Below, in pieces: positions 34,272 to 53,828 of a stretch of 54,406 nt of DNA (position 1 is the stretch's first letter; each line of letters opens with the position of its first letter). This stretch comes from Nitrososphaeria archaeon. Lineage in GTDB: Archaea > Thermoproteota > Nitrososphaeria > JACIWG01. The stretch covers positions 1-54,406 of the forward strand of contig CAVVXT010000001.1 in the NCBI GenBank assembly GCA_963752255.1, given 5' to 3'. The translations under genes were made by a program, and so were the position numbers. Below the pieces are notes generated by a model. The model was not told the origin of the DNA and did not search any database. It saw nothing but the letters and a program-made list of their open reading frames with translations.

Positions 34272-37200
34272 CTTCCTTGCCTCCTTGCGTCATAAACAGG
34301 TCCACCATACCTGTTCCTACTGGGATAGGCAGCCCTACTATAACACTTTCGGTTACACCCTTTAACTGCTCGGTTTCACCTTTAACAGAAGCTTCGGCCA
34401 GCGTCGGAACAGTTATCTCGAAGGCGGCTCTTGCTAGAACACTTGCTTTGCCTCCGACTACACCGTGGCGGCCTACCTGTTTAAGTGAGCCTGTAACAGT
34501 CATCAGGTCTGCGACAAGACATATGTGTCTTATATCCACTTCCAACCCCTGCTCCTCCATAGTGTCTCTTACTTCCCTTACCAGAGCAGATCTTGCAGCT
34601 TCGATGCCTAGCGTTGACCATATTTCGTAGATGTCATTTGTAGTGGTTCTAGCTGGGTTGACGCCTTCGATCTTCATGACCTTTGCAAGGTTTGATCCTT
34701 TAGTCTGGATAACCCATTCCCCCCCTTCGTGAACCACTGAAGCCTCAGTTATGCCCGGTATACCTTTTAGTCTGCTGTTCAAGATTTTCGTCTTCATTCT
34801 CTGGAGAGATAGAGGATCCGCGCCTTCGGCCATTATTATTAAGGTGTCCTCGCCGACGATCTCAGGCTTCCTCTTGCTGGTCTCCATCGCAGCCGCTACA
34901 TCTTTAGCTGCGACGATGAGGTCGTTCATGGCTTCTACGTCGAGGACTATCGTAATCTGGCCGCTGGGGTCGATCTCACTGCTCTTTATAACATCGTTTA
35001 TCTTTGAGAAACGTATCTCTGCGGCGATCCTTTTGGCAACATCCAAGTCGTCAGCGAATTCGGATAGGAGGTAAATGTCCATAGTGGGGGTGGACGGTTG
35101 TCTTCTTGCATCAACCAGTTCTATGAGCCTTGGCAGACCCAACGTTATGTCCCTTTCTTTAACGCCGGCAAAGTGGAATGTTCTAAGCGTCATCTGTGTG
35201 CTTGGTTCACCTATAGACTGTGCGGCGACGACGCCTACAGCTTCCCCCGGCTCTATCAGCGCTTGCTCAAAAAGCTCTGATGTACGCGATATAACACGCT
35301 CTGCGCTCGCCTTCGGAAGTTTTGACTTAGATAATTCTGTCTTAAGTTCCTCGATTACCTTCGGATTAAGTGACTTGGCATATTTTTCGAGGTTTGCTTC
35401 AAGATCTTTTTCTTTTATTGCTGCCCCACCTGCTGTGAGCTGTTCTGCTTCGATAAGTCTTTTGACGTTTACGGCTTTGCTGTGGTCACTCTTGGAGGGG
35501 TCGACGCCGTCTTCACTGTAGAGAAACTGGATTATCGCGCCTTCCGGATCCCTTACAGTTCGGTCGTATTCGACTCTGAGATGTTCCATTGCGTTGACAA
35601 GACGTCTTTGCATGTAACCGCTCTGCTGCGTTCTAACGGCTGTATCAACAAGCCCCTCTCTACCGCCCATTGCGTGGAAGAAGAATTCAAGAGCGTTAAG
35701 GCCTTCTCTATAGTTTGACTTAATGAACCCTTTTGCGTCGGGGTTTATGTCATTTGATTCAAAGTGGCATAGAGTCCTGTATTCATAGCCTCTCATAATT
35801 CGTTTGCCACGGATGGACTGTTGTCCAAGAGCGGCGGCCATGTGACCTATGTTCAAAGGCGACCCCCTCGCACCCGTCCTCGCCATAATGATAGCGCTGT
35901 TTTCGTCTGAAAGGTTCCTGTCAGCGACCTTTCCAGCGGCGTCACGCGCTTTGGAAAGTTCGTTGACTATGTAAAGTTCGAGCACTTCCTCAGGGGAAAG
36001 GCCTCTCATCAGAGTCAGAGTGCCTTCTCTATAACGTTTCTGAAGGTCGTCAATTCTTCCGTAAGCGTCTTTAATCGACTGTTTAACCGCGTCCACAACG
36101 CTTGGAGGCAGCCAAAAATCGTCGTAGCCGATCGTGAACCCCTTGAAGGTTATGTAAGCCTTTATAACCCTAAGAATCGAATTAAGGAAATTTTTTGCCG
36201 CCTCGCTACCATATTCTTTTACGATCCTATGAAGCACACTGTCCGGTCTTTCAGCGCCGATAGAGGCTTTGTCGATAACACCGGAGACCAGTTCGCCGTC
36301 CCTTATAACCACCTGTTTACCATACCAACTCGACTTTAACACGTAGTTGAATCCTTCCGGTAGAAAGAGCGAGAACAGCTGTCTTCCATGATAAAGTTCT
36401 TCCGGTTCTTGCTTCGCCGGTTTAGGTATCTTTCCCACATATCCCCCGATTGTGGCGAGATTCACGAACTCCTCCTTTGTTAGGTATGAGTCTTCTTTAG
36501 TCAGCAAATATGCCCCAGTGATGTAGTCTCTAATAGCGCCTATTATGGGTCCCCCGTATCTCGGAGACAGTATCTGGTCCTGAACACGCATCAGCAACTC
36601 TGCTTCACATCTTGCTTCCTCTCCCTGTGGCACGTGAAGGTTCATTTCGTCTCCGTCGAAGTCGGCGTTGTATGGAGTGCAGACCGCTGGATGAAGTCTA
36701 AATGTTCTGCCTGGCAGAACCTTTGCACTGTGCGCCATGATGGACATCCTGTGCAAGGAAGGCTGTCTGTTGAAAAGGACGATGTCTCCATCTACAAGAT
36801 GTCTTTCGACAATATATCCGGGACCGAGCGCGGAGGCAACTGCTGCTCTATCCTGAACGTAATCTAGTCTTATTTTTACTCCGTCTGGGCGTATAATGTA
36901 ATTGGCGCCAGGATACTTGTCGCCGTTTGCGACAAGCTGCCTTAGGCGGTCGATGTTCCAGCCTATAACCTTCTCCGGTATCGTAAGCTTCTTTGCTACT
37001 TCAGCCGGTATGCCCACTTCGTTTATGTCCATGTTTGGATCAGGTGAGATGACTGTACGGCTTGAGAAGTCAACACGTTTTCCTGAAAGGTTGCCTCTAA
37101 ACCTTCCCTCCTTACCCTTAAGTCTTTGGCTCAGTGTTCTCAGAGGTCTGCCTGAGCGGTGGTGGGCTTGAGGGATGCCGCTGACTTCGTTGTCAAAGTA

Positions 37201-38046
37201 GGTTGTAACATGATATTGAACTAGGTCAACTAGGTCTTGAACGATCAGCGGTGGTGAACCGGACTCCTTACTTTCTTTCACACGCTGATTCGTCCTAAGT
37301 ATGTCCACAAGCTTGTGGGTTAAATCGTCTTCGGACCGGATTCCTGTTTCAAGAATGATTGAAGGACGAACTGTAACGGGGGGAACCGGAAGCACTTGAA
37401 GGACAAACCACTCCGGTCTAACCTTATCCAATTCGTAGCCCAAGAGAACAAGGTTTTTATCGTTTATTTCTTCAAGCCATGCGCGTATCGAGCTCGCCAA
37501 AAGTCTAGAAGGGCCTTCATCCCTGATTTCATAGAACGTTGTTGGCTTCACCAACTGGATTTCGTACTTTACGCTTCCGCAATGAGGGCACTGTCTTGCC
37601 TTCTTTGCTTTTAGCCTGATCTCTCTAAAGATCTTCTCTAACACTTCAGAAGTGACGTACTTACTGTCCTCGATCCCTTTCTTGTATCCGTTTATTATCT
37701 CGTCACTTAATATTAGCTTGTGGCAGACACGGCAAGTTGTCTGAAGAATAGTGTATATGTCGTCTACGAAGGCGACATGGATTATCGGCTCAGCTAATTC
37801 GATGTGTCCAAAATGTCCAGGGCATTTTACTGAAGTGTTTCCGCATGTTGCACATTTCTGACCGGGTTCTAGCGTGCCCAGTCTTGGATCCATTAAGCCT
37901 CCGGGAACAGAAAGTCCGTCCCTGTCGTATGTTTCCGGCGCCATTACTTCAACAACGCTGTACGATCTGACAATTTGAGGTGAAAATATCGTAAACTTTA
38001 TTCCACCAATATTCTTTTGAAGATCTTCGATTGACATTTCAACCAC
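34252..38046 (-). CDS. rpo1: DNA-directed RNA polymerase subunit A'/A'' fused (Rpo1)
   Basis: CPGHFGH, NADFDGD, followed in frame by A'' motifs SIGEPSTQMTLRTFH and GTG; 1264 aa. Confidence 0.98.
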   Translation of the reverse strand: MVEMSIEDLQKNIGGIKFTIFSPQIVRSYSVVEVMAPETYDRDGLSVPGGLMDPRLGTLEPGQKCATCGNTSVKCPGHFGHIELAEPIIHVAFVDDIYTILQTTCRVCHKLILSDEIINGYKKGIEDSKYVTSEVLEKIFREIRLKAKKARQCPHCGSVKYEIQLVKPTTFYEIRDEGPSRLLASSIRAWLEEINDKNLVLLGYELDKVRPEWFVLQVLPVPPVTVRPSIILETGIRSEDDLTHKLVDILRTNQRVKESKESGSPPLIVQDLVDLVQYHVTTYFDNEVSGIPQAHHRSGRPLRTLSQRLKGKEGRFRGNLSGKRVDFSSRTVISPDPNMDINEVGIPAEVAKKLTIPEKVIGWNIDRLRQLVANGDKYPGANYIIRPDGVKIRLDYVQDRAAVASALGPGYIVERHLVDGDIVLFNRQPSLHRMSIMAHSAKVLPGRTFRLHPAVCTPYNADFDGDEMNLHVPQGEEARCEAELLMRVQDQILSPRYGGPIIGAIRDYITGAYLLTKEDSYLTKEEFVNLATIGGYVGKIPKPAKQEPEELYHGRQLFSLFLPEGFNYVLKSSWYGKQVVIRDGELVSGVIDKASIGAERPDSVLHRIVKEYGSEAAKNFLNSILRVIKAYITFKGFTIGYDDFWLPPSVVDAVKQSIKDAYGRIDDLQKRYREGTLTLMRGLSPEEVLELYIVNELSKARDAAGKVADRNLSDENSAIIMARTGARGSPLNIGHMAAALGQQSIRGKRIMRGYEYRTLCHFESNDINPDAKGFIKSNYREGLNALEFFFHAMGGREGLVDTAVRTQQSGYMQRRLVNAMEHLRVEYDRTVRDPEGAIIQFLYSEDGVDPSKSDHSKAVNVKRLIEAEQLTAGGAAIKEKDLEANLEKYAKSLNPKVIEELKTELSKSKLPKASAERVISRTSELFEQALIEPGEAVGVVAAQSIGEPSTQMTLRTFHFAGVKERDITLGLPRLIELVDARRQPSTPTMDIYLLSEFADDLDVAKRIAAEIRFSKINDVIKSSEIDPSGQITIVLDVEAMNDLIVAAKDVAAAMETSKRKPEIVGEDTLIIMAEGADPLSLQRMKTKILNSRLKGIPGITEASVVHEGGEWVIQTKGSNLAKVMKIEGVNPARTTTNDIYEIWSTLGIEAARSALVREVRDTMEEQGLEVDIRHICLVADLMTVTGSLKQVGRHGVVGGKASVLARAAFEITVPTLAEASVKGETEQLKGVTESVIVGLPIPVGTGMVDLFMTQGGKEVGKEDS

Positions 38047-41000
38047 CTAAATTTTATCTTTAAGAAGGACACGGGGCAGTATGTTAAGACTCATCATTTC
38101 CTGCACCAGCAATTTGAAAGCGTACGCCATGGACACTGTAGCTATTTTCGCGTTTGAACCACATATTCTACAAATGTACTTCCTTGTCCTTGCATCGAAG
38201 TACGCTATTAGACCACAATTTTCACATATGAACACATCTGTCTTGTCTGATTCATCAAGAAGTCTATCTTTTAAAACCATCGACGTGCCATACGCTATAA
38301 GGCAGTCACGTTCCATCTCTCCAAACCTTAGGCCTCCGCCTCTTGATCTTCCTTCGGTCGGCTGTTTTGTTAGCATCTGTACCTGACCTCTTGCTCTGGC
38401 ATGAATCTTATCCGCAACCATATGGTGCAGCTTCTGATAATAGACTACACCGACAAAGATTTCGGCGGGGTATTTTCTTCCAGTTCTCCCATCATACATG
38501 ACCTCCTTGCCTGTATTCACGAATCCGAGTTCCTTCAGCTGTCCCTCTATCGAGTCCACCGTCTCGCCACAGAACGGTGAGCCGTCAATCTGAGTCCCTC
38601 TAAGTGAGCCGACCTTTCCTCCCATCGATTCAATGAACTGTCCCACGGTCATCCTTGAAGGGAATGCGTGGGGGTTGAGGATAATGTCTGGAATAACCCC
38701 TTCTTCAGTGTAAGGTAGATCTTCCGGGTTCGCTAGAAGACCGAGGATACCCTTTTGACCGTGTCTGGACGCAAACTTGTCGCCTATCTCAGGCACACGC
38801 ATGTCTCTTACCTTAATCTTGAACATCTTTCCTCCCTCAACGTTCACCGACATTATTATGGAGTCTACGATGCCCGTCTCCGAAGGCCTTACAGATACTG
38901 AGGTGTCTCTCATATACGGACCGCTGGCCTCTATCTCCCTATATTCTTCGGTAAAACGTGGCGGGCTTGTTCTTCCGATCAAAACATCGCCGCCTGAGAC
39001 ATTCGCTTCTGGGAAGATGCCACCATCAGATTCCAGAAGACGATAGAACTTATCGCCGCGGTATCCCTTGATGTTGGCGTCAGAGTTCGGCACTTCAAAT
39101 CGGTCCTTCATTCCTCCTAGGTAGAGCTGTGCCTCCGCTTCATAGAGTCTGAAGAAGAATGTCCTTCCGAAGCCTCTTTCCACAGAAGACTTGTTCATTA
39201 CGATGGCGTCTTCGATGTTATAACCTTCATAGGACATAACTGCGACCACAGCGTTTTGCCCTAGAGGTCTATCGTTCAAGTTCAGCATTTCGAATGAGCC
39301 AGTTGTCACCATAGGCTTTTGAGGATAAATCAGAAGATGGGCTCTGACGTTCATTGTATGTTTATAAATCGGCGATGGGAAGCCGAGCGCCTGTTTTGCC
39401 ATGGCGCTTTCATAAGTGTTTCTCGGTGACTGGTTGTGCTCCGCATATGGTATGACTGAGGCTACTGCGCCAAGCATGCCGGTCATAGAGATCTCTAAAT
39501 GGCTGTGCTTAGAGTTAAGCTGGTCCGGTTTCGTCGCAATAAGACAATTTTCTTCCTCGTTAGCGTCAATGAGTTCGAGTTCACCCTTCTTCAAGAGCTC
39601 TCTCCAAGATATTTTTTCTTCCAGAACTTCTTCCAGGTCTTCCTTTTTTAACAGAGGCGAGCCGTTCTTAGCTACAATAAGCGGTCTCAAGACTCTGCCT
39701 GAATAGGCGTTGATGTAAATTCTTGTTTCCGCTTTCGGGTTCTGTGGAACCTTAAGGTATATGCTCACATCACTGTTGATCAACGCGTTTCTCCTCATGT
39801 TCCTGAACTCGCTGCAGAATTCTTCAGGATCCATAACGTAGCCTGATAGGCTGCTGTCCAAGAAAACCCTTGCCCCGGCCATTTTGACTTCATTGGAAGC
39901 ATCTTTGTATGATGTGAGCCCTATCTGTGAGATGACGTTGAAAATTTCTCTGGGATCCGCTGAAACAGATATTACCGCGGAAAGTGCGAGGTTCTTTACT
40001 AATCCACAGTTTGAGCCTTCAGGGGTCTCACACGGGCATATTCTCCCGAAATGTGTAGGATGAAGGTCTCTTGCCTCAAAGTTGGGCTGGCTTCTGGATA
40101 GAGGCGATTGAATTCTTCTTAGATGGCTGATGGTTGAAAGGTAGTTCGTCCTATCAAGCAGCTGGGTTATACCCACCTTGCCTCTTCCCCAGTTTCCTGT
40201 AGCTATCGCGTTCCTAAGCTTGTCAGTTATTATACCCGGCCTAATTGCTACGTTTACTACTCCGATACCCCTTTTCTGTCCTGAATGCTCTAGCTGGTAT
40301 TTCATATCCTTTATCAGGTTTCTGAAGCAAGTCCTGAACAGGTCGGCTAAAAGCTGACCTGAGAGACGGATAACTTTATTACCGTAATGGTCCTTGTCGT
40401 CTGAATTAATCCACCCAAGCTTGTATTCAAGAAGCTTGCAGACAGCTTCACCTATGAAAAGAGACTTGTCTACACGATTCTGCGTAGACTTCCCAAGGTG
40501 TGGTAGCAGCCCCCAATCGAGAACGTTTTCAGCCCGTTTAACCCGGTACTCCTCCTGTAATCCATGAGCAACTCTGTTCCCTAGGTATACGAGCGCATCG
40601 TTGACGGTGACAACTTCGCTACTTTTATCAAATGTGGGCCCTAGGAAGTCTTGGATCTCAGATTTTAGCGAAATCGATTCTACAATTTCTTTATCCGATT
40701 CCAGACCCAGCGCTCTCATCAGAACGACAACTGGAATGTCGGTGGGAACGTTTGAGAATCTGGCGTAGATGACGCCGTCTTGATGCAGAGATATTGCCAG
40801 CTTTGACCTATACCCCACGACAGACGAATAGACGGTTGCAGTGGATATGTTAACGCCACCCTGCTTCTTTACGTCGACAAGAATCTTGTTAGGTGCAAGA
40901 TCTTCAAGTCCTACAATAACACGTTCTGAACCATTGATTATGAAGTAGCCTCCAGGGTCCAGATAGTCTTCACCTTCTTCGATGAGCTCTTCGTAAGACT

Positions 41001-41409
41001 TCTTAGACAGCGTGCAGAGCTCCGATTTAACCATAACGGGGAGGTCGCCGATGTACAAATATTGAGAGTCCGTAACAACTCCATTCGACAGGATCTTCAT
41101 CTCAAGCTCTACCGGCGCCGAATATGTCAGGTTCCTCATTCGTGCCTCCATCGGCGATACAGAGGATTTGGAAGCGTCATGTTCGGTGACTCTTGGTGAA
41201 CCGATACGAACCTTTCCAAACTGCACAGTGTACGGGTTCGTCAACGTCTCAACATCTATTTTCGCTATTTCGTCAACGATCACCTGAACGCCATATCTTA
41301 TGAATTCGTTGTATGAGTTTATGTGCTGTCTAGCGATACCTTCTTCTTCTACGACCTCCTTTAAGAGAGGCCATAAGTCTTGAGATTTCTTTTCAACCAA
41401 CCCTATCAC
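38047..41409 (-). CDS. rpo2: DNA-directed RNA polymerase subunit B (Rpo2), unsplit
   Basis: GYFIINGSERV, ETPEG.NCGL, GDKFASRHGQKG, GLRFGEMERD. Confidence 0.98.
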   Translation of the reverse strand: MIGLVEKKSQDLWPLLKEVVEEEGIARQHINSYNEFIRYGVQVIVDEIAKIDVETLTNPYTVQFGKVRIGSPRVTEHDASKSSVSPMEARMRNLTYSAPVELEMKILSNGVVTDSQYLYIGDLPVMVKSELCTLSKKSYEELIEEGEDYLDPGGYFIINGSERVIVGLEDLAPNKILVDVKKQGGVNISTATVYSSVVGYRSKLAISLHQDGVIYARFSNVPTDIPVVVLMRALGLESDKEIVESISLKSEIQDFLGPTFDKSSEVVTVNDALVYLGNRVAHGLQEEYRVKRAENVLDWGLLPHLGKSTQNRVDKSLFIGEAVCKLLEYKLGWINSDDKDHYGNKVIRLSGQLLADLFRTCFRNLIKDMKYQLEHSGQKRGIGVVNVAIRPGIITDKLRNAIATGNWGRGKVGITQLLDRTNYLSTISHLRRIQSPLSRSQPNFEARDLHPTHFGRICPCETPEGSNCGLVKNLALSAVISVSADPREIFNVISQIGLTSYKDASNEVKMAGARVFLDSSLSGYVMDPEEFCSEFRNMRRNALINSDVSIYLKVPQNPKAETRIYINAYSGRVLRPLIVAKNGSPLLKKEDLEEVLEEKISWRELLKKGELELIDANEEENCLIATKPDQLNSKHSHLEISMTGMLGAVASVIPYAEHNQSPRNTYESAMAKQALGFPSPIYKHTMNVRAHLLIYPQKPMVTTGSFEMLNLNDRPLGQNAVVAVMSYEGYNIEDAIVMNKSSVERGFGRTFFFRLYEAEAQLYLGGMKDRFEVPNSDANIKGYRGDKFYRLLESDGGIFPEANVSGGDVLIGRTSPPRFTEEYREIEASGPYMRDTSVSVRPSETGIVDSIIMSVNVEGGKMFKIKVRDMRVPEIGDKFASRHGQKGILGLLANPEDLPYTEEGVIPDIILNPHAFPSRMTVGQFIESMGGKVGSLRGTQIDGSPFCGETVDSIEGQLKELGFVNTGKEVMYDGRTGRKYPAEIFVGVVYYQKLHHMVADKIHARARGQVQMLTKQPTEGRSRGGGLRFGEMERDCLIAYGTSMVLKDRLLDESDKTDVFICENCGLIAYFDARTRKYICRICGSNAKIATVSMAYAFKLLVQEMMSLNILPRVLLKDKI

Positions 41410-41660
41410 TCTATAACATACCTGTAGTAGAATACTACTCCAGAAACGTCACTTTTCCTGGTTATCTTAATGATGTCTCCAGGCTTGGCACCGAGTTCTC
41501 TTATCGCTGGATCCAATGAAAAAATGTATGGAAGCTGGTGGGACTTGATGTGGAACGTATCTAGAATCTTCTGAGCTTCCTCAGCCGATAATATCTCGTG
41601 CTTTGGTACGAGAATGTGATCTGATATCAAAAATTCCTTCTTCTCTGTTTTTTTACTCAT
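41406..41660 (-). CDS. rpo5: DNA-directed RNA polymerase subunit H (Rpo5)
   Basis: HILVPKHEIL, LP.I...DP, GDIIKITRKS, YYRYV. Confidence 0.96.
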   Translation of the reverse strand: MSKKTEKKEFLISDHILVPKHEILSAEEAQKILDTFHIKSHQLPYIFSLDPAIRELGAKPGDIIKITRKSDVSGVVFYYRYVIE

Positions 41661-41775
41661 ATATAAAAACCTCTATGCAGAGGAATAAAGGAAAAATTTC
41701 CATTTAAAAACTCCTAAGAGACCCTTAGATGACGGTTATTTAAATGTTACCATATTTTTATAAATGAAGGCAATG

Positions 41776-44055
41776 TTATGAACAGGCGCTGTAACCGCAC
41801 GCTGGACAGCTTAGGCATCCTTCTGAATATTGTACAGGCGCACCGCACTCAGGGCAGGTCGGTGGCATACCGTTGAGAAAGTCTTTGCGCTCAACGTTCG
41901 CATCATCGCTTGAATCTTTCTCCTCACCCCTTCTTGATGAGGATTCAGAATATTTCAGCAGAGATTCCTGTTCTTTGAGTCGTCCGTCAAGACGCATTTC
42001 CATAGTTAACGATATCGCATGTGAGCATGAAAGAACCTGTACACCTTCACTCCAAGTCGGGATAGGACACCTTATGCCTTTAAGCTGTTCAACGATCGCT
42101 CGAGGGTCGACACCGCTTCTTAAAGAAAGCGAGATGAGCCTGCTAAGGCCTTCAGCGAAACTATTCATACATCCACCAGACTTACCCATGGTCGTGAAGA
42201 CTTCGCATAAACCGTTTTCATCTTCGTTAATTGTGACATACAGGTTGCCGCAGCCTGTCCGAATCTTGTACGTGAATCCTCTTGTGATCGGAGGGCGATC
42301 CCTAGGCTTAGTCATAGTCTTCTCTTTCGATTCGCCGAGGCCGAAGCTTATTACCTGAGTGTCTTTGCTTTTATCTCGATAGATTGTTACACCCTTACAT
42401 CCCAGATCGTGCGCTAAAAGGTATATCCTTGCCACGTCTTCTTTGGTCGCATCGCTTTCAAGATTAACTGTCTTGGACACCGCGTTATCGACATATTTCT
42501 GGAACGCGGCCTGTATTCTGACATGCGTCTCCGGAGCGATGTCATGAGCGCTCACAAAGATTTTCTGGACATCTTCAGGTATAGACTCCATCCCTCTTAC
42601 AGAGCCTTTTTCAGCAACTTTCTTCATAACATCTTCAGTGTAGAAACCCTTTGCTCTAGCATATTTTTCAAAGTGCGGGTTGACTTCAACTAAATCGGTT
42701 CCATCGAGCACATGCTTGACGTAGACGACAGAGAAGATGGGCTCGATGCCGCTTGAACAGTTTGCGATCATGCTTATTGTACCGGTAGGAGCGATGGTAG
42801 TAAGAGTAGCGTTCCTCAAATACGGATACTTACCGAAAAATGTGCTCTTCTCAAAATTGGGAAAACTCCCCTTATCCTTCCCCAAAGCCACCGAACAAGC
42901 TCTAGCCTCATCTGAAACAAATCTCATGACATCATCCGCTACTTTAAGAGCTTCATCGCTGTCGTAAGCAATCCCCAAAAGAATCAGCATATCAGCGAAC
43001 CCCATCACACCTAAACCAATCTTCCTGTTTCCCTTGGTCATCTGCTCAATCTCCTCCAAAGGATACCTGTTCATATCAATCACATCATCGAGGAAGCGCA
43101 CCGAAGACCAGACAACCCTCCTTAACCTATCAAAATCGATCACAAACCTACCCTCCACTTCACTAACCATCAAAGCAAGATTGATTGATCCCAAATTACA
43201 TGACTCATAAGGGAAAAGTGGCTGTTCTCCACATGGGTTTGTGCTCTCTATCTGCGCTATGGACTGCAGGGGGTTTGCTTTGTTTATCTGGTCAATGAAG
43301 ATTATCCCTGGGTCGCCGGTGGTCCACGCTGTTTCCACTATTAGGTTAAAGATGTCCTTCGCTTTCTCATTCTTTGTAGGCTGGTTTGTTCTCGGGTTTA
43401 TTAGTTGATATTCTTCATCAACTCTCATCTTCTTCATGAAATCATCGGTGACTGATACGGAAATGTTAAAATTCGGGAACGACCTCCTATCAAGTTTACA
43501 TGTAACAAAAGATCTAATGTCTGGATGGTCGATTCTGAGAACACCCATATTTGCGCCTCTTCTTGTGCCACCTTGTTTTATTGCTTCAGTAGCGGAGTCA
43601 AACACTCTCATAAAAGAGACTGGGCCGCTTGATACACCTCTTGTTGACTTGACGATGTCGTTAGCAGGTCTAAGCCTTGAAAAAGAGAAACCTGTTCCGC
43701 CACCACTTTTATGGATGAGCGCCGCATTCTTTATTGCGTCAAAAATGCCTTCCATTGAATCTTCGACAGGAAGGACAAAGCATGCTGATAGTTGTCCAAG
43801 CGGGCGTCCGGCGTTCATCAAAGTCGGGCTGTTAGGTAAAAATTCTAGATCAGCCATCATCCTGTAGAATTCATTTCCTAGAAGACCGATCTCCTCATCA
43901 TTTTTTCCGTATAATTTTTCGGCTGAAGCAACGGTCTTAGCTACGCGTAAGAACATTTCTTCTGGGGTCTCGATAGTCTTCCCATTTTCATCTTTTGCCA
44001 AATATCTTTTCTCTAAAATGGTCAGCGAGTTATCGGAGAGTTTTATTTGTTCCAA
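41776..44055 (-). CDS. nrdJ: Class II (B12-dependent) ribonucleotide reductase with C-terminal TSCPD domain and Zn ribbon
   Basis: PNSPTLMNAG, SACFV, TNPCGEQ, CNLGSINL, IAPTGTIS, GCGNLYVT, CPECG...EGCLSCPACGYS. Confidence 0.95.
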   Translation of the reverse strand: MEQIKLSDNSLTILEKRYLAKDENGKTIETPEEMFLRVAKTVASAEKLYGKNDEEIGLLGNEFYRMMADLEFLPNSPTLMNAGRPLGQLSACFVLPVEDSMEGIFDAIKNAALIHKSGGGTGFSFSRLRPANDIVKSTRGVSSGPVSFMRVFDSATEAIKQGGTRRGANMGVLRIDHPDIRSFVTCKLDRRSFPNFNISVSVTDDFMKKMRVDEEYQLINPRTNQPTKNEKAKDIFNLIVETAWTTGDPGIIFIDQINKANPLQSIAQIESTNPCGEQPLFPYESCNLGSINLALMVSEVEGRFVIDFDRLRRVVWSSVRFLDDVIDMNRYPLEEIEQMTKGNRKIGLGVMGFADMLILLGIAYDSDEALKVADDVMRFVSDEARACSVALGKDKGSFPNFEKSTFFGKYPYLRNATLTTIAPTGTISMIANCSSGIEPIFSVVYVKHVLDGTDLVEVNPHFEKYARAKGFYTEDVMKKVAEKGSVRGMESIPEDVQKIFVSAHDIAPETHVRIQAAFQKYVDNAVSKTVNLESDATKEDVARIYLLAHDLGCKGVTIYRDKSKDTQVISFGLGESKEKTMTKPRDRPPITRGFTYKIRTGCGNLYVTINEDENGLCEVFTTMGKSGGCMNSFAEGLSRLISLSLRSGVDPRAIVEQLKGIRCPIPTWSEGVQVLSCSHAISLTMEMRLDGRLKEQESLLKYSESSSRRGEEKDSSDDANVERKDFLNGMPPTCPECGAPVQYSEGCLSCPACGYSACS

Positions 44056-44442: not shown

Positions 44443-45508
44443 CTAAACTTGAATTCTTGCCTTCTGAAATGCCAAAGCTACACCTTCGTTAGTTAAAACT
44501 CCGATAACTTTGGTTGCATCAGATCTGTCAACTACGGGTACAAGATCTAGCTTTTCCTGTTGCATAACCTTATAAGCTTCTGTTACTGGCTCGTCCCAGA
44601 AGACAAACTTTCTTTAACGGAAACTGGTTCAATCGTAATCCATTCCTCTCTTCAGGCTTTTTCTTCATGATTTCTTCCCAACTCACTACCCCCTGCATAA
44701 TGTTATCCTTCATCACAATTATATCATGGTATCTTGCTTTGAACATGATTTCTACAGCTTCCGCAAGTGTTGTTTCTGGGTTAGATGCGGCCACTTCGGT
44801 GTACATAACGTCTATTACTCTTATATTCTTCATAGACTTGGATAGGATTGTCGATTCGGTTTCTTCTGCTGCACCTACATATACAAACAAACCGATTATA
44901 ATCAACCAGAAATTTGTGAAGGCTCCAAGGAAAGCCATTGTTATACCAAGAAATTTTCCGATAGTAGCCGCGTACCTTGTTGCGTCTGAAAAATCCATTC
45001 TTTCAGCCAGAATTGCTCTAAGCACCCTTCCACCATCCATTGGGAATGCAGGAATTAGGTTAAATGCTGCTAAAACAATGTTTATAGCCCCTAGGTCTAG
45101 AGGAAGATTTTTGGTGGGAGTCAAATTTAAGAGAGAAAAGGAAGGGAGTTTCCCACCGAACATAACCAGTCCAAGTGTTAGTAATAGTAGACCCAAAATA
45201 AGGCTTGTTAAAGGTCCAGCGATAGCCATCCTCCATTCCACTCTCGGATTGTCTGGAATCTGATCTATTTGAGATGCCCCCCCAATGGGGTAAAGGACAA
45301 TCTTTCTAACTCTTATACCATAATGTCTCGCAACCATTGAATGAGATACTTCGTGTGCCAAAACCGAAATAAAAAGAAATACTGTGAGGATGAAAAGGTA
45401 AAGGTCCGGATAGGAAAAAATGCGCACAAAAACCATTAACAATATAAATGTGATATGAAGTTCTATAGGAATACCCCAGATAGTTATGACTCTAAATGAA
45501 TACTTCAC
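44443..45508 (-). CDS. Site-2 protease (M50) with CBS pair, one frameshift near 44590
   Basis: HEVSH, AGP, NLIPAFPMDGGR; second CBS domain EAYKVM...LVPVV...VIGVLT in the shifted frame to TAG at 44443. Confidence 0.9.
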
Positions 45509-45630: not shown

Positions 45631-46521
45631 TCAGTGTTCGTTAGCGGCTTTCGGATAGTTTTCGTCTTCAAGCTGGAAGGTAGTATGATCTATCCCAAAG
45701 TCTTTCTTCAATTCATTAATCAGATCTGAAATTAAACGCTTTCTGTCCACGTTTTGGTTTACAACAATGTGGCAGCTTAAACAGCATGTTTTGTTCGGAG
45801 CAATGCACCAGACGTGAAGATCGTGCACACTAATCACACCATCCATCTCAGAAATCTTCTTTTCAAGCCAGTTTATGTCAACCCCTTGGGGGACTCCTTC
45901 TAGGAGAATGTTAAGAGATTCAAGGATCAGCTTACCTGAACTATAGAAGATCAAGACGCCAATCATTATGCTTATCAGGGCATCTGCCTGATACCAACCT
46001 GTTAACAGCATCACTACACCTGCCGAAATAGCACCTATAGAACCCAAAACATCAGACATAACATGCAAGAAAGCCGCTCTAATATTCAAGCTCGAAGTCT
46101 TGGTCCTTGAGATAACTAGTGCGGAAAGGCCATTTGCGCCCAAGCCGAGAATTGCGATAATCAACATGCTTAGGCTTTTAACCTGTTGTGGCTCTTGAAT
46201 ACGTTGAATGGCTTCAAATATGATAAATATAACAATCCCCCAAAGGAAAATACCATTGAGGAAGCCCGCAATTATTTCTGCTCGATAATATCCGTAAGTT
46301 TTTCTGATCGTGGCAGGCCTTGTAGCAATCCATGCAGCTGTAATTGAGAAGGCAAGGCCGAAGACATCGTTCAACATGTGCCATGCGTCAGTCGTCAGGG
46401 CTAAGCTGTTTGTGAGAATACCACCTACAAGTTCAATTACGAAGAAGACAGCCGTGATGCCCAACGCTATACCTAAATTTCTTGTACTGTCTGGTGGGCA
46501 GGAGGTTTCCTGCATCTTCAA
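45631..46521 (-). CDS. czcD: Cation diffusion facilitator (CzcD-like Zn/Co/Cd exporter)
   Basis: DAWHMLND, TYGYYRAE, AFLHVMSD, HDLHVW, HTTFQLE. Confidence 0.9.
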   Translation of the reverse strand: MKMQETSCPPDSTRNLGIALGITAVFFVIELVGGILTNSLALTTDAWHMLNDVFGLAFSITAAWIATRPATIRKTYGYYRAEIIAGFLNGIFLWGIVIFIIFEAIQRIQEPQQVKSLSMLIIAILGLGANGLSALVISRTKTSSLNIRAAFLHVMSDVLGSIGAISAGVVMLLTGWYQADALISIMIGVLIFYSSGKLILESLNILLEGVPQGVDINWLEKKISEMDGVISVHDLHVWCIAPNKTCCLSCHIVVNQNVDRKRLISDLINELKKDFGIDHTTFQLEDENYPKAANEH

Positions 46522-46678: not shown

Positions 46679-47095
46679 ATGGGAAGGGAAACACCAAGCG
46701 TTTTCAAGAAGATACCTAAAAAGGAGAAAAGCGATCTTATTGCGGCAATAAAAGGTAAGAAATATTGGAACGTTTCTGAAGAAGACAAGAACTACGTCTA
46801 TGTAGTTGCACTGTCGAGAGCTAGAGAGAAAGCTCCAGTCGGATATTATGCGAAGACTTCCGCTCATGGGAAGGTTCAGGTGATTCCAGAAGCGGCAAAA
46901 TATTGTAGGAAATATAGAATATTAATTTTAGACCTTGAGAATCGTTCTGCGTTTTCGGTGTTGACTTGGATGGCATTCACAAGAATAATGAGAAGAAACG
47001 ATGAATTAGTTAAGATGCTCATTAAGAGCGGGCTGACTCCTCCTTATATTAACAGGAAGGTTCTTAGGGAACTCTCTGAAAAATGTCTGAAGTAG
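46679..47095 (+). CDS. Hypothetical basic protein
   Basis: 138-aa ATG ORF filling the intergenic space; no recognised motif. Confidence 0.65.
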   Translation: MGRETPSVFKKIPKKEKSDLIAAIKGKKYWNVSEEDKNYVYVVALSRAREKAPVGYYAKTSAHGKVQVIPEAAKYCRKYRILILDLENRSAFSVLTWMAFTRIMRRNDELVKMLIKSGLTPPYINRKVLRELSEKCLK

Positions 47096-48051: not shown

Positions 48052-48189
48052 ATTATAATCATTCCCCCGGGGAGAACCTTGATAATGTTTAGTTTATGAA
48101 AAATTTTTTTTCACTTTTTTGAATTAGATAAGGTTGGATAAATTTATAAAAGGTTAAAAGATAGAAATGCAAGGTGCTGTTTACCCTTT

Positions 48190-51165
48190 ATGGAAGAAGA
48201 TAAGCCACTCAATGCTGGTAAAGGGGAAGTATCTAGCATATCTAAAGATAAGTCGATTGGGGGATCTAGCACAGATTTTGAACAAGGGTTATCCCAAAAT
48301 GAGGCTGAAAAGAGACTCCAAGAATTTGGCTTAAACGCCGTACCAAAAATAAGACCCAACTTGTTCAGGTCATACGTCTCTCCCTTAATGAATTGGCTTA
48401 TTAGTATCTATTTGATAATCAGCATAATCTTAGCCTTACTTGCTTTTTTTATACGACCGAGAATTTATGGCCAGGTGTTTCTATGGCTTATTGTGATCGC
48501 GATCAACGCGGTCCTGATAATTATACAGCACTTCAGAGCCCAGATCAATCTGGAGGCGCTTCAGAAACTTTCTCCGCCGGAGAGTAAGGTGATTCGAGAC
48601 GGAAAGATTGTCGTAATACCCTCTGAGCAGATAGTTCCAGGCGACATTATCATGCTTAGTGCAGGGGATAAAGTTCCAGCAGATGCTAGAATTATTTCTT
48701 CTCCATACCTTAAAGTAAACGAAGCAGCACTTACAGGTGAGTCTGAGGAAGTTGAGAAATGCGCTGACAACACTACGGAAGTTACACATATTACATCCAA
48801 CTCATCAAATCTTATCTTCTTAGGAACTTGGGTGACCGCAGGTTCAGCAAAAGTTGCTGTTTTAAAAACAGGCAAGGAAACTGAACTTGCAAAAATTTCA
48901 AGAAATGTAGAAAAAAGGAATGTGATGCAAACAACTTTACAGACAAAAATAAATAAAATAGCAAAATATTTGGGATTCGCGGTTCTCGCCTATCTAGCTA
49001 TTGCACTTGTACATCAAGTAGTTCTCATATATGTAAACCACATTCTCCATCAGAATATCGTGTATAACGTTGACCTTATCGCAAGAACTGTAGAGAGAAA
49101 TCTAACAACAGCGATGAGTATTATGCCAATCAATATTCCACTTCTAACTACAATTACACTTCTAACAGGTGCAATAGCGATGGCCAAGCATAAGGTTATA
49201 ATACGGGATTTGAATTCGATAGAGAGCCTTGGCAGAGTTTCCATAGTGTGCGCAGACAAAACAGGAACAATGACAAAAAATGAAATGACAGTAAAATGGA
49301 TATGTTTTCCTTCTACCGAAAGCAACGATTTACTTTATGGTGTAACTGGGAGTGGATATGAATCTGAAGGCAAAATTATAGAAATAAATGAAAGCATTGG
49401 ATTAAAAGATATTGCAGCACAAACTCCTGAAACGATAGGTGTAAATGTAGTGAGTATACATTCAGGAATGTTGCTTGAACATCTTCTTGTTTCAGGAATG
49501 CTCAACAATGATTCCACGTCTGTTATAAGTAGGTCATCTGCTTCGGTAGCAGAAAAAGAAAAACCAGTTGTTAAGGTAATTGGTGATGCAACTGATTCTT
49601 CATTGTCGATCTTGTTTGACAAGTCAGGATTAAATTTGGAAGAATATAAGTTACAGTTTAAAGAAATACTTTCTTTCCCGTTTGACTCAAACTTAAAGTG
49701 CATGAGCAAGGTTTTTGTGAATAAAGATGGTGGGTACGTTACTTTTACAAAAGGTGCTACTGAGACCATTTTACCGATGTGCAATTTTATTGTTGAGGAT
49801 GCAATAAATAACGTGCGAGAATTTAAAGGCAGAGATAAGGAGACAATCTTTAAGAAGGCTAACATCCTTGCTTCTTTCGGATACAGGATTATCTCGTTTG
49901 CTTTTAGGAAATCTGGAACCCTAGAAACAATTCAAAGAGAAAGGAACTCGATAGAAAGGGATTTAACTTACTTGGGATTTATAGCTATCTCAGATCCATT
50001 AAGGGAAGATGTCCATGAATCTGTAGCAGAAGCGAAGGATGCAGGAATCAGGACGGTCATGGTAACCGGTGACAATCCAACAACGGCGAAGACGATAGCT
50101 GAACAAGCAGGAATATTTAACCAAAACGATTTGATTACTGAAGGGCAAAGTTTAGAGTCGCTTTCAGAAGATGAATTTATCAGAACTTCAGTATTTGCCA
50201 GAATCTCTCCTGAACACAAAAAGATAATTGTGGACCATTATAAAAGGCTAGGGGACGTTGTAGCCGTAACAGGTGACGGAGTAAATGATGTAATTGCACT
50301 TTCGGAAGCAGACGTCGGCGTCGCTATGGGTGTTACCGGAACAGACGTTGCTAAAGAATCTGCTGATATGATCGTATCCGACGATTCGTTCAGTACCATT
50401 ATCACAGGAATACGTGAAGGCAGAGGGCTGTTCGAAAAAATTCGTACCATAATTTTCTTCTACATCGCCGTAAACCTTGCAGAAGCTTTAGTTTATTTTG
50501 GGGCTTCCTTTTTATCCGGTTTCTATCTACTAAACGCCTATCAACAGATATATATTTTTATGACCGCTCACTCCATCCCGCCTTTTGCGATACTAATAGA
50601 GCAACTGAGCTTAGGGATCATGAAAGAGAAACCGAGGAAAACGGAGGATATATTCACCAAGAGACTCATCATCGCTCTACTTCTCTTCTCAATTTCATTG
50701 GCGTTCATGCTTTTTGTTACATACTACGCAACGATATCCGGTCTAATACCTGTTTTTGCAGTGAACAAGTTAGGATATGTCCCTAACTTTAGCGCATCCA
50801 ATTTCTTGAATCCGATCGATTGGGCTCAGGCAAAAGCTCGAACAATGTTGCTTACTGTCGTACTTATCGCGGAATGCACGCTAGTTATTTCTTTAAGAAG
50901 AATAAACGAGTCAATATTTAAAATACTAAGGGAAAACAACTATTGGGTTATTTGGCTTTTAATATTATCTGTTCCAATAGCCCATTTGACGCTGATGTAT
51001 ATACCATCTATTCAATCAATTTTGTTTAATTATTTTGGCATCAATTTAGAGATAATCCGTCTCTCATTCATTGACTGGATAGTTGTCATCGTCTTGGGGT
51101 TGATGCCTGTGACGGTACTGGAAGTGTATAAGATGAAGCTCAAAAGGCAGGGGCTTTTCTTTTAA
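48190..51165 (+). CDS. P-type ATPase, P2-like scaffold with atypical transport site
   Basis: TGES, DKTGT, KGA, TGD, TGDGVND; about 10 TM segments; M4 reads MPINIP. Confidence 0.92.
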   Translation: MEEDKPLNAGKGEVSSISKDKSIGGSSTDFEQGLSQNEAEKRLQEFGLNAVPKIRPNLFRSYVSPLMNWLISIYLIISIILALLAFFIRPRIYGQVFLWLIVIAINAVLIIIQHFRAQINLEALQKLSPPESKVIRDGKIVVIPSEQIVPGDIIMLSAGDKVPADARIISSPYLKVNEAALTGESEEVEKCADNTTEVTHITSNSSNLIFLGTWVTAGSAKVAVLKTGKETELAKISRNVEKRNVMQTTLQTKINKIAKYLGFAVLAYLAIALVHQVVLIYVNHILHQNIVYNVDLIARTVERNLTTAMSIMPINIPLLTTITLLTGAIAMAKHKVIIRDLNSIESLGRVSIVCADKTGTMTKNEMTVKWICFPSTESNDLLYGVTGSGYESEGKIIEINESIGLKDIAAQTPETIGVNVVSIHSGMLLEHLLVSGMLNNDSTSVISRSSASVAEKEKPVVKVIGDATDSSLSILFDKSGLNLEEYKLQFKEILSFPFDSNLKCMSKVFVNKDGGYVTFTKGATETILPMCNFIVEDAINNVREFKGRDKETIFKKANILASFGYRIISFAFRKSGTLETIQRERNSIERDLTYLGFIAISDPLREDVHESVAEAKDAGIRTVMVTGDNPTTAKTIAEQAGIFNQNDLITEGQSLESLSEDEFIRTSVFARISPEHKKIIVDHYKRLGDVVAVTGDGVNDVIALSEADVGVAMGVTGTDVAKESADMIVSDDSFSTIITGIREGRGLFEKIRTIIFFYIAVNLAEALVYFGASFLSGFYLLNAYQQIYIFMTAHSIPPFAILIEQLSLGIMKEKPRKTEDIFTKRLIIALLLFSISLAFMLFVTYYATISGLIPVFAVNKLGYVPNFSASNFLNPIDWAQAKARTMLLTVVLIAECTLVISLRRINESIFKILRENNYWVIWLLILSVPIAHLTLMYIPSIQSILFNYFGINLEIIRLSFIDWIVVIVLGLMPVTVLEVYKMKLKRQGLFF

Positions 51166-51384: not shown

Positions 51385-53052
51385 TTAAATTTGGCTGTTT
51401 GCTAGGAACTTCTTAGCATTACGCAGAGCAATCCTATAAAATAAGAACGTTATCATAAAAGAAATAACCGCACTAAACGTAACGGCTATAGGAACATTAA
51501 TTTTGGGTAAAAACTCTATAAAGGGTAAAGCAAGCAAACGGGCAGCATAATAAAGTAAAGGTAAAAGCACAATCACTGATATAACTACACTTATAATCAA
51601 GCCGACTAGCGAAGTCACTGGATTAACCATCTTAGGTATGGGCGCTTCAGTGAACTGCGCGCCTTTTATTCCCGAACCGATTGAAACAGCAGCTATTGCA
51701 AAGATTAAAAGGAAAGATTCAATTATTGATACAACAATTAGGATTATAGAAGGATGCGTAACTAAGATTCCTACAATGTCACAAAGAATTGAAACTAGGC
51801 AGGAGATGGATACAACGAAGGTATACTTGGATTTTAGCAAGTTACTAGCACTAATAGGAGAAGAGTATATGAGCCAAATCGACAGGCCTTCTTCACCAAT
51901 TATAATAGTCCCGAGAGATGTAGACATAAGGGCACCTGGTAATAGGAGTATCCAAACAGAGAAGAAGGATGAAAATGATGATTGAATCTGACCAGCTGAC
52001 CCTAGTATTGGCGCCAGGATAATAATTAGAGGCAGTATGAAAATATACATTAACTCTCTCCTTCTTGTGAAAGCTCTGAGGTCTTTTCTTATCAAAGTGA
52101 CTTCTGATGTAGAGAAACCGAATCTTTCCAAAAACGATGTCCTTGGAACATAAACTCCCTTCGATACTGTTATTGCCGGAGGTTCGTATAAACCGAATTT
52201 TACGTTTAGTCTAACTGCCAGAAAAAAGAGGAGAAAGGTGAAAGCTACAGAAGCAATTAAGCATAGGAAGGTGTTCAGAATATTTCCATTGTTGAGGGAA
52301 GCAAGTGCCAATCCTGGCCAGGCGTACGGAACATACCAAATAGCACCTTGGGCACTAGCTACGGTTTGAATTAGCACTATCGCATTTGAGCCTGATGTAA
52401 TAATGAAATATAATACATAGAAAAAGATCAAAAAGAAGATAGAACCTACGAACCTCACCCAGACAGCAGCCTTACCCGATGACTTGTAGACTGCGCCTAT
52501 GAACCGGGTCTGCAGAACCCTGAAGATGTCTGTTGTTGTGCTTGCCAAGAAAGCAGCTACAAGTAATGCAAACGTTGCAAAAAGTGCAAGAGAAACCAAG
52601 TTAAGGAAGATGGATGATATCAACACAGCCAAACTGATCGCAATAATTGAGGCCAAGGGAAAACCTATCAGATGCGATATGACTGAAGCAAGGGTATGTT
52701 CTTCCCAAGTTATGGGTAACCAATATGGAACCTGGACAGATAACCTCATTCCTCCCTGCTGAATCTGGCTCATCATTGTAAATATCAAGCTATAAAGAAG
52801 TATCAATATCGGAAGTGAGAGAAAAACGTACAGAGCTCCCTGATAAATGAGGCTTTTGAATTCAAGATCAAGAAGGTTGCTGTAGAAGAACCCAACAGAT
52901 AGACCTACCAACAACCCTATCGTTACACCACCCCCATACAGTAGGTATTGAAGTGTCCTATTTTCTCTGTATCTTCTGAGTTGACTACTTCTAATTAACC
53001 TTCCAGACTTTATGTCCACATTAACGAGCCTGACCACGTTTCTCCAGTTCAC
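51385..53052 (-). CDS. Large ABC-2 type exporter permease
   Basis: 555 aa, many TM helices, IRKDLR and EG...WLIYSSP motifs; overlaps the ATPase stop. Confidence 0.8.
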   Translation of the reverse strand: MNWRNVVRLVNVDIKSGRLIRSSQLRRYRENRTLQYLLYGGGVTIGLLVGLSVGFFYSNLLDLEFKSLIYQGALYVFLSLPILILLYSLIFTMMSQIQQGGMRLSVQVPYWLPITWEEHTLASVISHLIGFPLASIIAISLAVLISSIFLNLVSLALFATFALLVAAFLASTTTDIFRVLQTRFIGAVYKSSGKAAVWVRFVGSIFFLIFFYVLYFIITSGSNAIVLIQTVASAQGAIWYVPYAWPGLALASLNNGNILNTFLCLIASVAFTFLLFFLAVRLNVKFGLYEPPAITVSKGVYVPRTSFLERFGFSTSEVTLIRKDLRAFTRRRELMYIFILPLIIILAPILGSAGQIQSSFSSFFSVWILLLPGALMSTSLGTIIIGEEGLSIWLIYSSPISASNLLKSKYTFVVSISCLVSILCDIVGILVTHPSIILIVVSIIESFLLIFAIAAVSIGSGIKGAQFTEAPIPKMVNPVTSLVGLIISVVISVIVLLPLLYYAARLLALPFIEFLPKINVPIAVTFSAVISFMITFLFYRIALRNAKKFLANSQI

Positions 53053-53828
53053 TGTAGGAGCGCCCCGACAACTTCCTTTATATCTTCTGTTCCTGTAAGT
53101 TTCAAAAAGATATCTTCAAGATCTGAACCAGGCATCCGAGCTTTCTCTCTAAGATCTTCCATATTTCCTAAAGCCTGCAGTCTCCCTTGAGACATTATAG
53201 CTATCCTATTAGCCATGGCCTGGGCGATTTCAAGAATATGAGTTGATACAACAGAAGTCACCCCCTGCTCTGTCAGCTCTTTCAGAAGGTCTTTGACAAT
53301 CCTAGCCGACTTTGGATCTAAACCGTTAAGGGGTTCATCCAAAATCAGCAGCTTCGGTTTATGAATTAAAGCTGAAATTAGAACGATCTTCTGTTTCATA
53401 CCCTGAGAGTAGCTATTTATTACGTCTCCTTCCCTCCCTTCTAGGCCAAGTGCTTCCATATACTTCTCTATTCTCGCCTTCTTGTCCGAAAGTGGGACCC
53501 CATAGATGTCCCCTACAAAGTCGAGGTACTCTAAGCCAGTCAAGAATTCGTAAATTCGAGGGGTTTCGGGAACATAACCTATGAGCCTCTTTACTCCCAC
53601 TGGATCTTCGACAACATTCTTTCCGAGCACTTTAACGACTCCTGAATCTGGTTTCACTAATCCCAAAATCATCTTCAGCGTAGTAGATTTTCCAGAACCA
53701 TTGGGTCCCAAGAGTCCAAGAATTTCCCCTTGCGGGACAGTAAGATCTAAGCTATCAACTGCTACTATGTCTGAGTAACGCTTGACTACTTCCTTAAGTT
53801 CCACTGCATATTCTGGGGAAAAACCCAT
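53049..53828 (-). CDS. ABC transporter ATP-binding protein
   Basis: GPNGSGKST, YSQGM, LILDEP, STH. Confidence 0.93.
   Translation of the reverse strand: MGFSPEYAVELKEVVKRYSDIVAVDSLDLTVPQGEILGLLGPNGSGKSTTLKMILGLVKPDSGVVKVLGKNVVEDPVGVKRLIGYVPETPRIYEFLTGLEYLDFVGDIYGVPLSDKKARIEKYMEALGLEGREGDVINSYSQGMKQKIVLISALIHKPKLLILDEPLNGLDPKSARIVKDLLKELTEQGVTSVVSTHILEIAQAMANRIAIMSQGRLQALGNMEDLREKARMPGSDLEDIFLKLTGTEDIKEVVGALLQ

Follow-up and report, generated by a model that had tools for sequence, protein, structure and literature searches.

A P2-type ATPase family with a rebuilt ion site, centred on Asgard archaea and carried by a Nitrososphaeria genome

The classes of P-type ATPases are defined by what they transport, and the substrate of each pump is set by residues in the transmembrane (TM) helices M4, M5, M6 and M8. 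A gene of this superfamily from a Nitrososphaeria archaeon raises the question of what might be carried by a pump whose catalytic motifs are intact and whose Ca2+ ligands in M4 and M6 have been replaced. The gene occupies positions 48190..51165 on the + strand of contig CAVVXT010000001.1 (assembly GCA_963752255.1), within a stretch of 54,406 nucleotides that was analysed as a whole and is called the window here. An earlier reading of the same DNA, made from its letters alone (the sequence-only reading), had seen in this gene a P-type ATPase with a rewired transport site that might carry a lipid or another non-canonical substrate. We find that the protein belongs to a conserved family on a P2 scaffold, here called PINIP/His, which is sister to the P2A Ca2+ pumps of prokaryotes and is centred on the Asgard archaea. 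We consider it likely that the product of the gene is a functional P-type ATPase of the Post-Albers kind with a single-site pocket. A whole clade built on a Ca2+-pump scaffold would then have had one site erased and the other rebuilt around a His, while its public label is still "Ca2+-transporting ATPase".

Catalytic motifs and membrane ligands

The gene is complete and encodes 991 amino acids with no internal stop. Five Pfam domains score above their gathering thresholds in the protein (Cation_ATPase_N, E1-E2_ATPase, Cation_ATPase, Hydrolase and Cation_ATPase_C), and with 246.5 bits it is well above the cut-off (62.3) of the generic P-type model TIGR01494, which places it in the P-type ATPase superfamily. 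The catalytic motifs had been called intact in the sequence-only reading, and all of them were located by script on the + strand: TGES, the dephosphorylation motif of the A domain, at residues 182-185 (48733..48744); the phosphorylation motif DKTGT (D356) at residues 356-360 (49255..49269); KGAT at residues 521-524; DPLR at residues 602-605; TGDN at residues 626-629; and the P-domain hinge motif TGDGVND at residues 694-700 (50269..50289). The residues D356, K357, T358, G359 and T360 are invariant across the family alignment (A1).

The substitutions lie in the membrane helices, whose motifs were located on the same strand. M4 reads AMSIMPINIP (residues 308-317, 49111..49140), of which the coordinates given earlier, 49123-49140, span exactly MPINIP. 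I314 occupies the position of the Ca2+-site-II Glu and N315 that of the Gly next to it, while M309 and M312 replace Val and Ile. M5 carries NLAE (residues 762-765, 50473..50484) and keeps the Ca2+-site-I ligands N762 and E765. M6 reads QIYIFMTAHSIP (residues 786-797, 50545..50580), which includes TAHSIP; here F790 stands in for the site-II Asn and H794 for the Asp that is common to both Ca2+ sites. M8 contains IAEC (50866..50877), with E895 at the acidic position of site I. The SERCA equivalents of these positions, which we take to be E309, N768, E771, N796, T799, D800 and E908, follow the customary numbering rather than a printed SERCA alignment. The alignment made by eye in the sequence-only reading (E309 to Ile, N796 to Phe, D800 to His) is matched by a HMMER alignment to Listeria LMCA1 (PDB 9euq/6zhf), in which P-I-N-I falls under P-E-A-L and F-M-T-A-H under N-L-V-N-D, and the M5 Asn and Glu and the M8 Glu that it had described as kept were found as N762, E765 and E895.

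The register of M8 comes mainly from an alignment with 96 canonical pumps, in which E895 falls in the M8 Gln/Glu column; its alignment with the M8 Asp of SPCA1 occurs only in a weak second HMMER stretch obtained with a 302-residue query; the last 242 residues alone, searched against the PDB, gave no match at E<=0.001. In an AlphaFold2 (AF2) model of the protein (pLDDT 79.4, pTM 0.73, with low confidence in the first 24 residues), the M4 helix unwinds at 312-315 and the M6 helix is interrupted at 792-795, which are the positions of the conserved residues.

How far these substitutions extend beyond the window was determined with a word-indexed search, which returned at least 120 homologues at 40-95% identity, and with an alignment of 144 family sequences (31-95% identity) that was compared with the 96 canonical pumps. 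Among the 120 homologues listed, the M4 motif is PINIP in 109, PISIP in 5, PINVP in 4, and PINIT and PIAIP in 1 each; the M6 His is present in all 120; and TGES is present in 114, the others having TGEA (2), TGEG (1) or TGEP (1) or being truncated at the N terminus (2). In the larger alignment I314 is conserved in 94% of the family (Glu in 100% of the canonical pumps), N315 in 94% (Gly in 90%), M309 in 85% (Val in 94%), M312 in 83% (Ile in 72%), N762 in 97% (Asn in 95%), E765 in 100% (Glu in 89%), H794 in 99% (Asp in 90%) and E895 in 93% (Gln in 55%, Glu in 35%). Position 790 is Phe in 53% of the family, Val in 26% and Tyr in 7%, against Asn in 97% of the canonical pumps. Further family-specific residues are P65 and Y74 on M1 (canonical Gln in 92% and Leu in 100%), W99 on M2 and N255 on M3; the loop between M7 and M8 has an insertion in which N859 and K882 are conserved. 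As judged from this alignment, the substitutions are far beyond chance, the same residues being conserved over 144 sequences. The sequence-only reading had asked whether PINI and the M6 His are conserved across an archaeal clade, as they prove to be, and had named their restriction to this one sequence as the outcome that would count against it; they are not so restricted, being conserved across the 144 family sequences at the percentages given.

An exhaustive search of representatives at 50% identity extends the family down to ~470 bits, below which ordinary PEGLP pumps appear, and takes in a more divergent group with PFNFP, PVNFP or PWNFP in M4, in which the Asn of M4 and the His of M6 are both retained. 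We delimit the family by the M4 pattern P-[IVFW]-N-x-P, N-x-x-E in M5, a His in the unwound segment of M6, a Glu in M8 and a profile score far above those of canonical pumps. The window protein has all four motifs and scores 1354 bits with the family profile, against 786 or less for the PEGL/PEAL pumps of the same phylum.

Position among the P-type ATPases and the flippase question

The closest known systems are the P2A pumps (LMCA1, 9euq/6zhf; SPCA1/PMR1, 8iww/7yag; SERCA1/2), which have the same domain order, all of the catalytic motifs and the M5 Asn and Glu. They provide the best matches to the window protein (LMCA1, 375 bits; SERCA in E2, TM-score 0.81) and form its sister clade in two phylogenetic trees. 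They differ in having PEGL or PEAL in M4 and Asn plus Asp in M6, where the window protein has PINIP, Phe and His; most of the prokaryotic relatives have Gln at the M8 position, where the window pump has Glu; and the canonical M1 Gln and Leu and the shorter M7-M8 loop contrast with Pro65, Tyr74 and the N859/K882 insertion of the family, whose scores are about half of the curated Ca2+-pump cut-offs. Every specific NCBIfam subfamily model falls below its cut-off for the window protein: the PMR1-type Ca2+ model (TIGR01522) gives 414 bits against 798, the SERCA-type model (TIGR01116) 380 against 703, the P2D model 365 against 645, the P3A model (TIGR01647) 321 against 615, the P5 model 237 against 618 and the P4 model (TIGR01652) 97 against 431. 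A 14-protein scan with these models covered eight further family members, which score 405-541 bits with the PMR1-type model and 367-496 with the SERCA-type model, and six canonical Ca2+ pumps, which score 639-794 and 616-709. The P2A Ca2+ ligands (M4 Glu, M6 Asn/Asp) are absent, with I314, F790 and H794 in their place, so that the protein falls outside class P2A as defined by its ligands; its Pfam domain set, its fold matches and its branching with P2A rather than P3 place it on the broader P2 scaffold.

The first tree (78 rows, LG+G4, quick search) unites the family and the divergent PFNFP/PWNFP group in one clade with a Shimodaira-Hasegawa-like approximate likelihood ratio (SH-aLRT) support of 100. 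The family is sister to the canonical PEGL/PEAL pumps (99), and the union of the two (99) excludes the P3A-like and P3B-like pumps of the window's own genome. The second tree (32 rows, LG+C20 with posterior mean site frequencies, PMSF) agrees, with 99 for the family, 99 for the union and 93 for the canonical group. The placement of the family relative to P2B, P2C, P2D, P4 and P5 comes not from these trees but from the model scores and from Foldseek, whose best matches are E2 states of SERCA (TM-score 0.81) and whose listed ranks 1-50 are all P2 pumps (SERCA, SPCA1, LMCA1, Na,K-ATPase and H,K-type).

Our searches of the literature, whose coverage did not extend to subscription journals, found no description of the PINIP/His family, apparently a P2-type subfamily, so far undescribed and without a name, whose ion site has been rebuilt. 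The derivation of SERCA and PMCA from bacterial pumps has been described (PMC7016017).

The sequence-only reading had gone further and compared PINI with the M4 motif of the eukaryotic lipid flippases. P4 flippases have DGET in the A domain and PISL in M4. That the window pump is a flippase or another pump for large substrates, whether as a forerunner of P4 and P5 or as a convergent form, is in our estimate very improbable, even though it has some points in its favour: Pro-Ile in M4 is common to the window pump and the P4 motif, the P4 model gives a mean score ~14 bits higher for nine family members than for the six canonical pumps, and the family is near-core in the Asgard archaea, the closest archaeal relatives of the eukaryotes. 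The Pro-Ile of M4 is, however, the only likeness to P4 pumps. The A-domain motif is TGES, and DGET occurs in none of the 120 listed homologues. The P4 model TIGR01652 reaches 86-126 bits for the nine family members, close to the 84-98 bits of the canonical Ca2+ pumps and far from its cut-off of 431; a long stretch matching that model passed on its own for two proteins of the 14-protein scan (P0001 and P0087) and for no other family member. With the P5 model the two groups cover the same range, family members scoring 216-256 bits and canonical pumps 218-276. Such scores, together with the presence of P2 folds only among Foldseek ranks 1-50, where no P4 or P5 structure is listed, tell against the proposed intermediate between P2 and P4.

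Nor does Ile at the E309 position serve as a hallmark of P4 pumps, a definition that has proved too narrow: the plant H+-ATPase AHA2 (5ksd) has PIAMP, and a hydrophobic Val stands at the same place in PVGLP of Pma1 and in PVALP and PVSLP of the window's own genome. A hydrophobic residue at this position of M4 is an ordinary way to close site II. The buried carboxylates of the family are kept (E765 in 100%, E895 in 93%), whereas P4 pumps are not known to have acidic residues at the equivalent positions, and because the M5 Glu is invariant and the M8 Glu nearly so, a cation site is favoured over a lipid path; nothing that was tested points to a lipid or to any other large substrate. No neighbouring gene for a subunit is conserved across 20 Asgard loci. 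A search for CDC50/LEM3 (PF03381), the beta subunit of P4A flippases, run without a positive control, gave no match in the window's genome (94.7% complete) or in 14 control genomes. A 2023 review considers the P4 and P5 pumps to be unique to eukaryotes, and the word "Asgard" occurs zero times in it (PMC10654040); a search of Asgard sequences for Spf1 is reported to have been uninformative (PMC10456885). What does stand of the sequence-only reading, along with the conservation in an archaeal clade, is that this is not a normal Ca2+ pump: an ordinary two-Ca2+ pump is contradicted by the conserved replacement of the Ca2+ ligands.

What the rebuilt pocket might carry

In the family Ca2+ site II is filled by hydrophobic residues (E309 replaced by Ile, N796 by Phe or Val), and a conserved polar pocket remains at the positions of site I, which is kept but rebuilt from N762 and E765 of M5, Thr/Ala793 and H794 of the unwound M6, and E895 of M8, with a new Asn and two Met residues on M4. 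One small cation per cycle would then most likely bind from the cytoplasm to a Glu-His-Glu-Asn pocket in E1 and be released to the outside in E2P, with protons probably returning on the two Glu residues and the His. Both the single-site stoichiometry and the direction of transport are what we infer from this arrangement.

Within this favoured explanation we would, with somewhat less than even confidence, guess first at one of the divalent transition metals (the class of Fe2+, Mn2+, Zn2+, Co2+ and Ni2+) as the substrate. It is favoured because a His, two carboxylates and the oxygens of Asn and Thr would make a neutral and roughly octahedral site, because two conserved Met residues flank the break in M4, and because the hosts would live in environments in which Fe2+ and Mn2+ are soluble. 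An octahedral site of His, carboxylate and Asn/Thr ligands suits transition metals and suits Ca2+ or Mg2+ poorly; Met has a role in the selectivity of NRAMP transporters; and the hosts of the family are, as far as is known, all anaerobes of sediments, peat or groundwater. A precedent is offered by the P1B-4 pumps for transition metals (Co2+/Fe2+/Zn2+), which have SPC in M4 and HEGxT in M6. Their likeness to the window pump, an analogy, consists of His and Glu ligands in the membrane helices that flank the phosphorylation domain, and it is the basis of the transition-metal guess. The P1B pumps differ in having 6-8 helices and in being without Cation_ATPase_N and Cation_ATPase_C domains; the window pump has both of these domains and no Cys in M4, and the heavy-metal models give 196-233 bits against a cut-off of 346.

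Several further results weigh against this picture. The pump protein has no cytoplasmic metal-binding domain and no His/Cys-rich tail. The genomic context is uninformative, in that the neighbours of the gene vary between lineages among the 20 Asgard loci compared. Rfam models at their gathering scores gave 0 matches in the whole window and 0 in 19 metagenome loci, riboswitches included, and no RNA run is found among the listed sequencing runs that hold near-identical DNA. The metal proposal draws on ligand chemistry and on analogy with P1B-4 and NRAMP only, and that the five or six pocket residues would face one cavity is drawn from homology with the solved Ca2+ pumps.

Chief among the alternatives would be a proton pump, or a pump of the H+/K+ type, in which site II would be plugged and His794 would act as the M6 carrier together with Glu765 and Glu895, replacing the Asp of the P3A pumps. 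We regard it as unlikely, though less so than the other alternatives. The P3A H+-ATPases (AHA2, 5ksd; Pma1, 7vh5 and 1mhs; and the PVALP and PVSLP pumps of the window's own genome) are likewise hydrophobic after the M4 Pro (PIAMP in AHA2, PVGLP in Pma1), with site II plugged, and they share with the window pump the presence of a single key titratable residue in M6, which is Asp in P3A and His here. His and Glu are, as a matter of established chemistry, good proton carriers, and H794 lies in the unwound part of M6 in the AF2 model. The family groups with P2A in both trees, however, with the P3A pumps in a separate long-branch clade outside the union of the family and P2A; the P3A model gives 311-375 bits against a cut-off of 615; and the genome already has four P3A-like loci. 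None of the listed family-specific basic residues would be placed within a TM helix, where it could have acted as a counterpart of the M5 Arg of P3A pumps, K882, R903 and R904 being at or near the ends of M8, and two buried Glu residues with no built-in counter-charge fit a bound cation better.

Ranked third, and improbable in our view, is a residual function as a one-site Ca2+ or Mg2+ ATPase that would use site I in place of site II. The best matches in sequence and fold are indeed Ca2+ pumps, ligating oxygens are still present at four of the five positions of site I, and public records name the relatives "Ca2+-transporting ATPase". Orthologs of a putative Ca2+ ATPase (TC 3.A.3.2.21), possibly members of the present family, have been reported in all five Asgard proteomes of one study and are taken there as support for Ca2+ signalling (PMC7997004). 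Against such a function stand the replacement by His, in 99% of the family, of the Asp common to both Ca2+ sites and the loss of the site-II Glu and Asn, and the specific NCBIfam models for Ca2+ and Mg2+ pumps are all far below their cut-offs. A canonical PEGL/PEAL pump is present besides in the same genomes. One-site Ca2+ pumps (LMCA1, SPCA and PMCA) are known to keep site II and not site I.

A transition metal remains our preferred substrate, and the fuller proposal, which we advance tentatively, is of an unnamed P-type subclass, present in ~70% of the sampled Asgard genomes and occasionally passed to other anaerobes, that would pump either a transition metal such as Fe2+ or Mn2+ or else protons. 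If this were true, the pumping of heavy metals or protons would have arisen a second time, independently of the P1B and P3A classes, and an Asgard-wide "Ca2+-ATPase" that is cited for eukaryote-like Ca2+ signalling would not be a Ca2+ pump. Should the substrate prove to be other than Ca2+, conclusions on how the archaea nearest to the eukaryotes handle Ca2+ would need revision, including the one drawn in PMC7997004.

Hosts, transfer and genomic surroundings

The distribution of the family was read with a profile built from 34 members, at a threshold of E<=1e-250 for the Asgard genomes. It is present in 209 of 301 sampled Asgard genomes (~70%), all 150 of the matches listed reach at least 1220 bits, and many of the genomes have two family matches. 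Among 401 genomes sampled from the window's own phylum, scores at the family level occur only in the window's genome (1354 bits) and in one other (G073, 1104 bits); nothing else exceeds 786 bits, and each of the 28 loci read that rank next has PEGL or PEAL. None of 401 Chloroflexota genomes carried the family when the two best candidates in each were scored. A locus search with generic patterns (KTGT..., TGDGVN) kept 80 loci, of which 79 hold ordinary pumps with identities of 28-34% and a single one (L009) a member of the family. The family is therefore nearly a core component of the Asgard archaea and sporadic elsewhere, with the window's Thermoproteota genome as one of its rare outside hosts, and the suggestion of a form in TACK archaea gives way to a family centred on Asgard (209/301 genomes against 2/401 in the window's phylum). 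The contribution of the window is to place the family outside Asgard, in a Thermoproteota genome from peat or soil.

Named members come from Odin-, Thor-, Heimdall-, Hod-, Njord- and Atabeya-archaea, from Promethearchaeota, from one Bathyarchaeia and from one Nitrososphaeria, the last with a homologue 95% identical to the window protein. The deep and divergent branches of the family are from Promethearchaeota wherever a source name exists, and the nearest cluster in the ESM Atlas has 327 members, mostly Promethearchaeota. By their source names, two cultured species of Dehalogenimonas carry a homologue that is ~50% identical, which provides an experimental handle. The 19 loci that a metagenome scan with the Dehalogenimonas protein yielded (39-56% identity) include no close relative of Dehalogenimonas. 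DNA nearly identical to the window's occurs in soil and peat metagenomes, where five runs from three studies contain half or more of the sampled words.

A starred subclade of the family tree, 27-28 rows in size, unites the window protein with Odin, Njord, Atabeya, "Asgardarchaeia", Bathyarchaeia and Dehalogenimonas sequences; the other Thermoproteota copy is in the same subclade but is not sister to the window protein. This pattern, together with the counts, suggests transfers out of the Asgard archaea, whose direction would follow from the distribution. An approximately unbiased (AU) test did not reject a tree in which 44 labelled Asgard rows are split from 5 non-Asgard rows (p = 0.186), and the nesting of the non-Asgard copies within Asgard diversity is on that account unproven by the tree. 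The guanine plus cytosine (GC) content is 0.388 in the pump gene and 0.408 in the genome as a whole; among 3-kb windows the gene ranks at the 28th percentile, and its composition gives no sign of recent transfer. Duplication has also occurred within the family: one Asgard genome (G401) has a tandem pair, PINIP and PINLP, at C91:77105-83023 (L119 and L120), 196 nucleotides apart on the same strand, along with one PEGL pump. Since the two copies sit on long, separate and deep branches of the family tree, the duplication is an old one.

The window's genome (2.1 Mb) contains about twelve P-type ATPase loci, which comprise two CPC pumps (Cu/Zn-type), four P3A-like pumps, two MgtA-like pumps, one KdpB, a canonical PEALP pump, a PEGF pump and the PINIP pump. 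Because the canonical PEALP pump is present as well, the PINIP pump is an additional paralogue beside an ordinary Ca2+ pump and not a substitute for one. The four P3A-like loci (PVAMP/PVALP/PVSLP) lie at C2:46815-48496, C6:36793-38734, C2:30049-32463 and C19:362274-364328 of this genome (G000). In two of them the reading frame (C2:46815-48257 and C6:37373-38734) ends after ~450-480 amino acids and continues in another frame, and these look frameshifted or split.

The pump gene itself stands alone, divergent from a gene for a family-4 uracil-DNA glycosylase and convergent with an ATP-binding cassette (ABC) transporter pair. It likely has its own promoter in the 138-nucleotide divergent spacer to the glycosylase gene, as read from the sequence, where an A/T-rich TATA-like box (tttataaaa, + strand) is found at ~48143-48151, within 48140..48189 and ~40 nucleotides before the ATG. 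The ABC transporter pair (51385-53828, - strand) consists of an ATPase (53049-53828) and a polytopic membrane protein of 555 amino acids with no Pfam match (51385-53052). Two genes upstream of the pump is a cation-efflux gene of the cation diffusion facilitator (CDF) type, with Cation_efflux and ZT_dimer domains (45631-46521, - strand), which did not turn up again next to family pumps at the other loci compared. It is adjoined by a gene for an M50 peptidase with a CBS domain (44570-45508), and a basic protein of 138 amino acids with no Pfam match is encoded between the CDF and glycosylase genes (46679-47095, + strand).

The comparison of neighbourhoods covered ~8.5 kb on each side of the 20 Asgard loci, one region holding only the end of the pump gene. 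The neighbours that recur, namely panB, a subtilase and a UFM1-ligase-like protein, reflect synteny within one Asgard group and were rejected as functional links on account of that confinement; histidine kinases were rejected likewise, as they recur as paralogues. In the syntenic group a protein of 651-666 amino acids starts at or just after the stop of the pump gene (L158:11425-13410, + strand, and the same position in L164, L165, L167 and L168). The one member that was scanned, from L158, matches the Pfam domain E3_UFM1_ligase (PF09743) with 41.6 bits and E 1.5e-10, with no stretch passing alone; a eukaryote-like ubiquitin-fold-modifier ligase domain thus adjoins the pump in this one Asgard group. 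Within the window, the GC content is strongly uneven, notably in the regions 1-8000 and 33000-42000: the first 6 kb have 0.35, and the surroundings of the gene for RNA polymerase subunit B (38047-41409) have 0.47, with a genome mean of 0.408.

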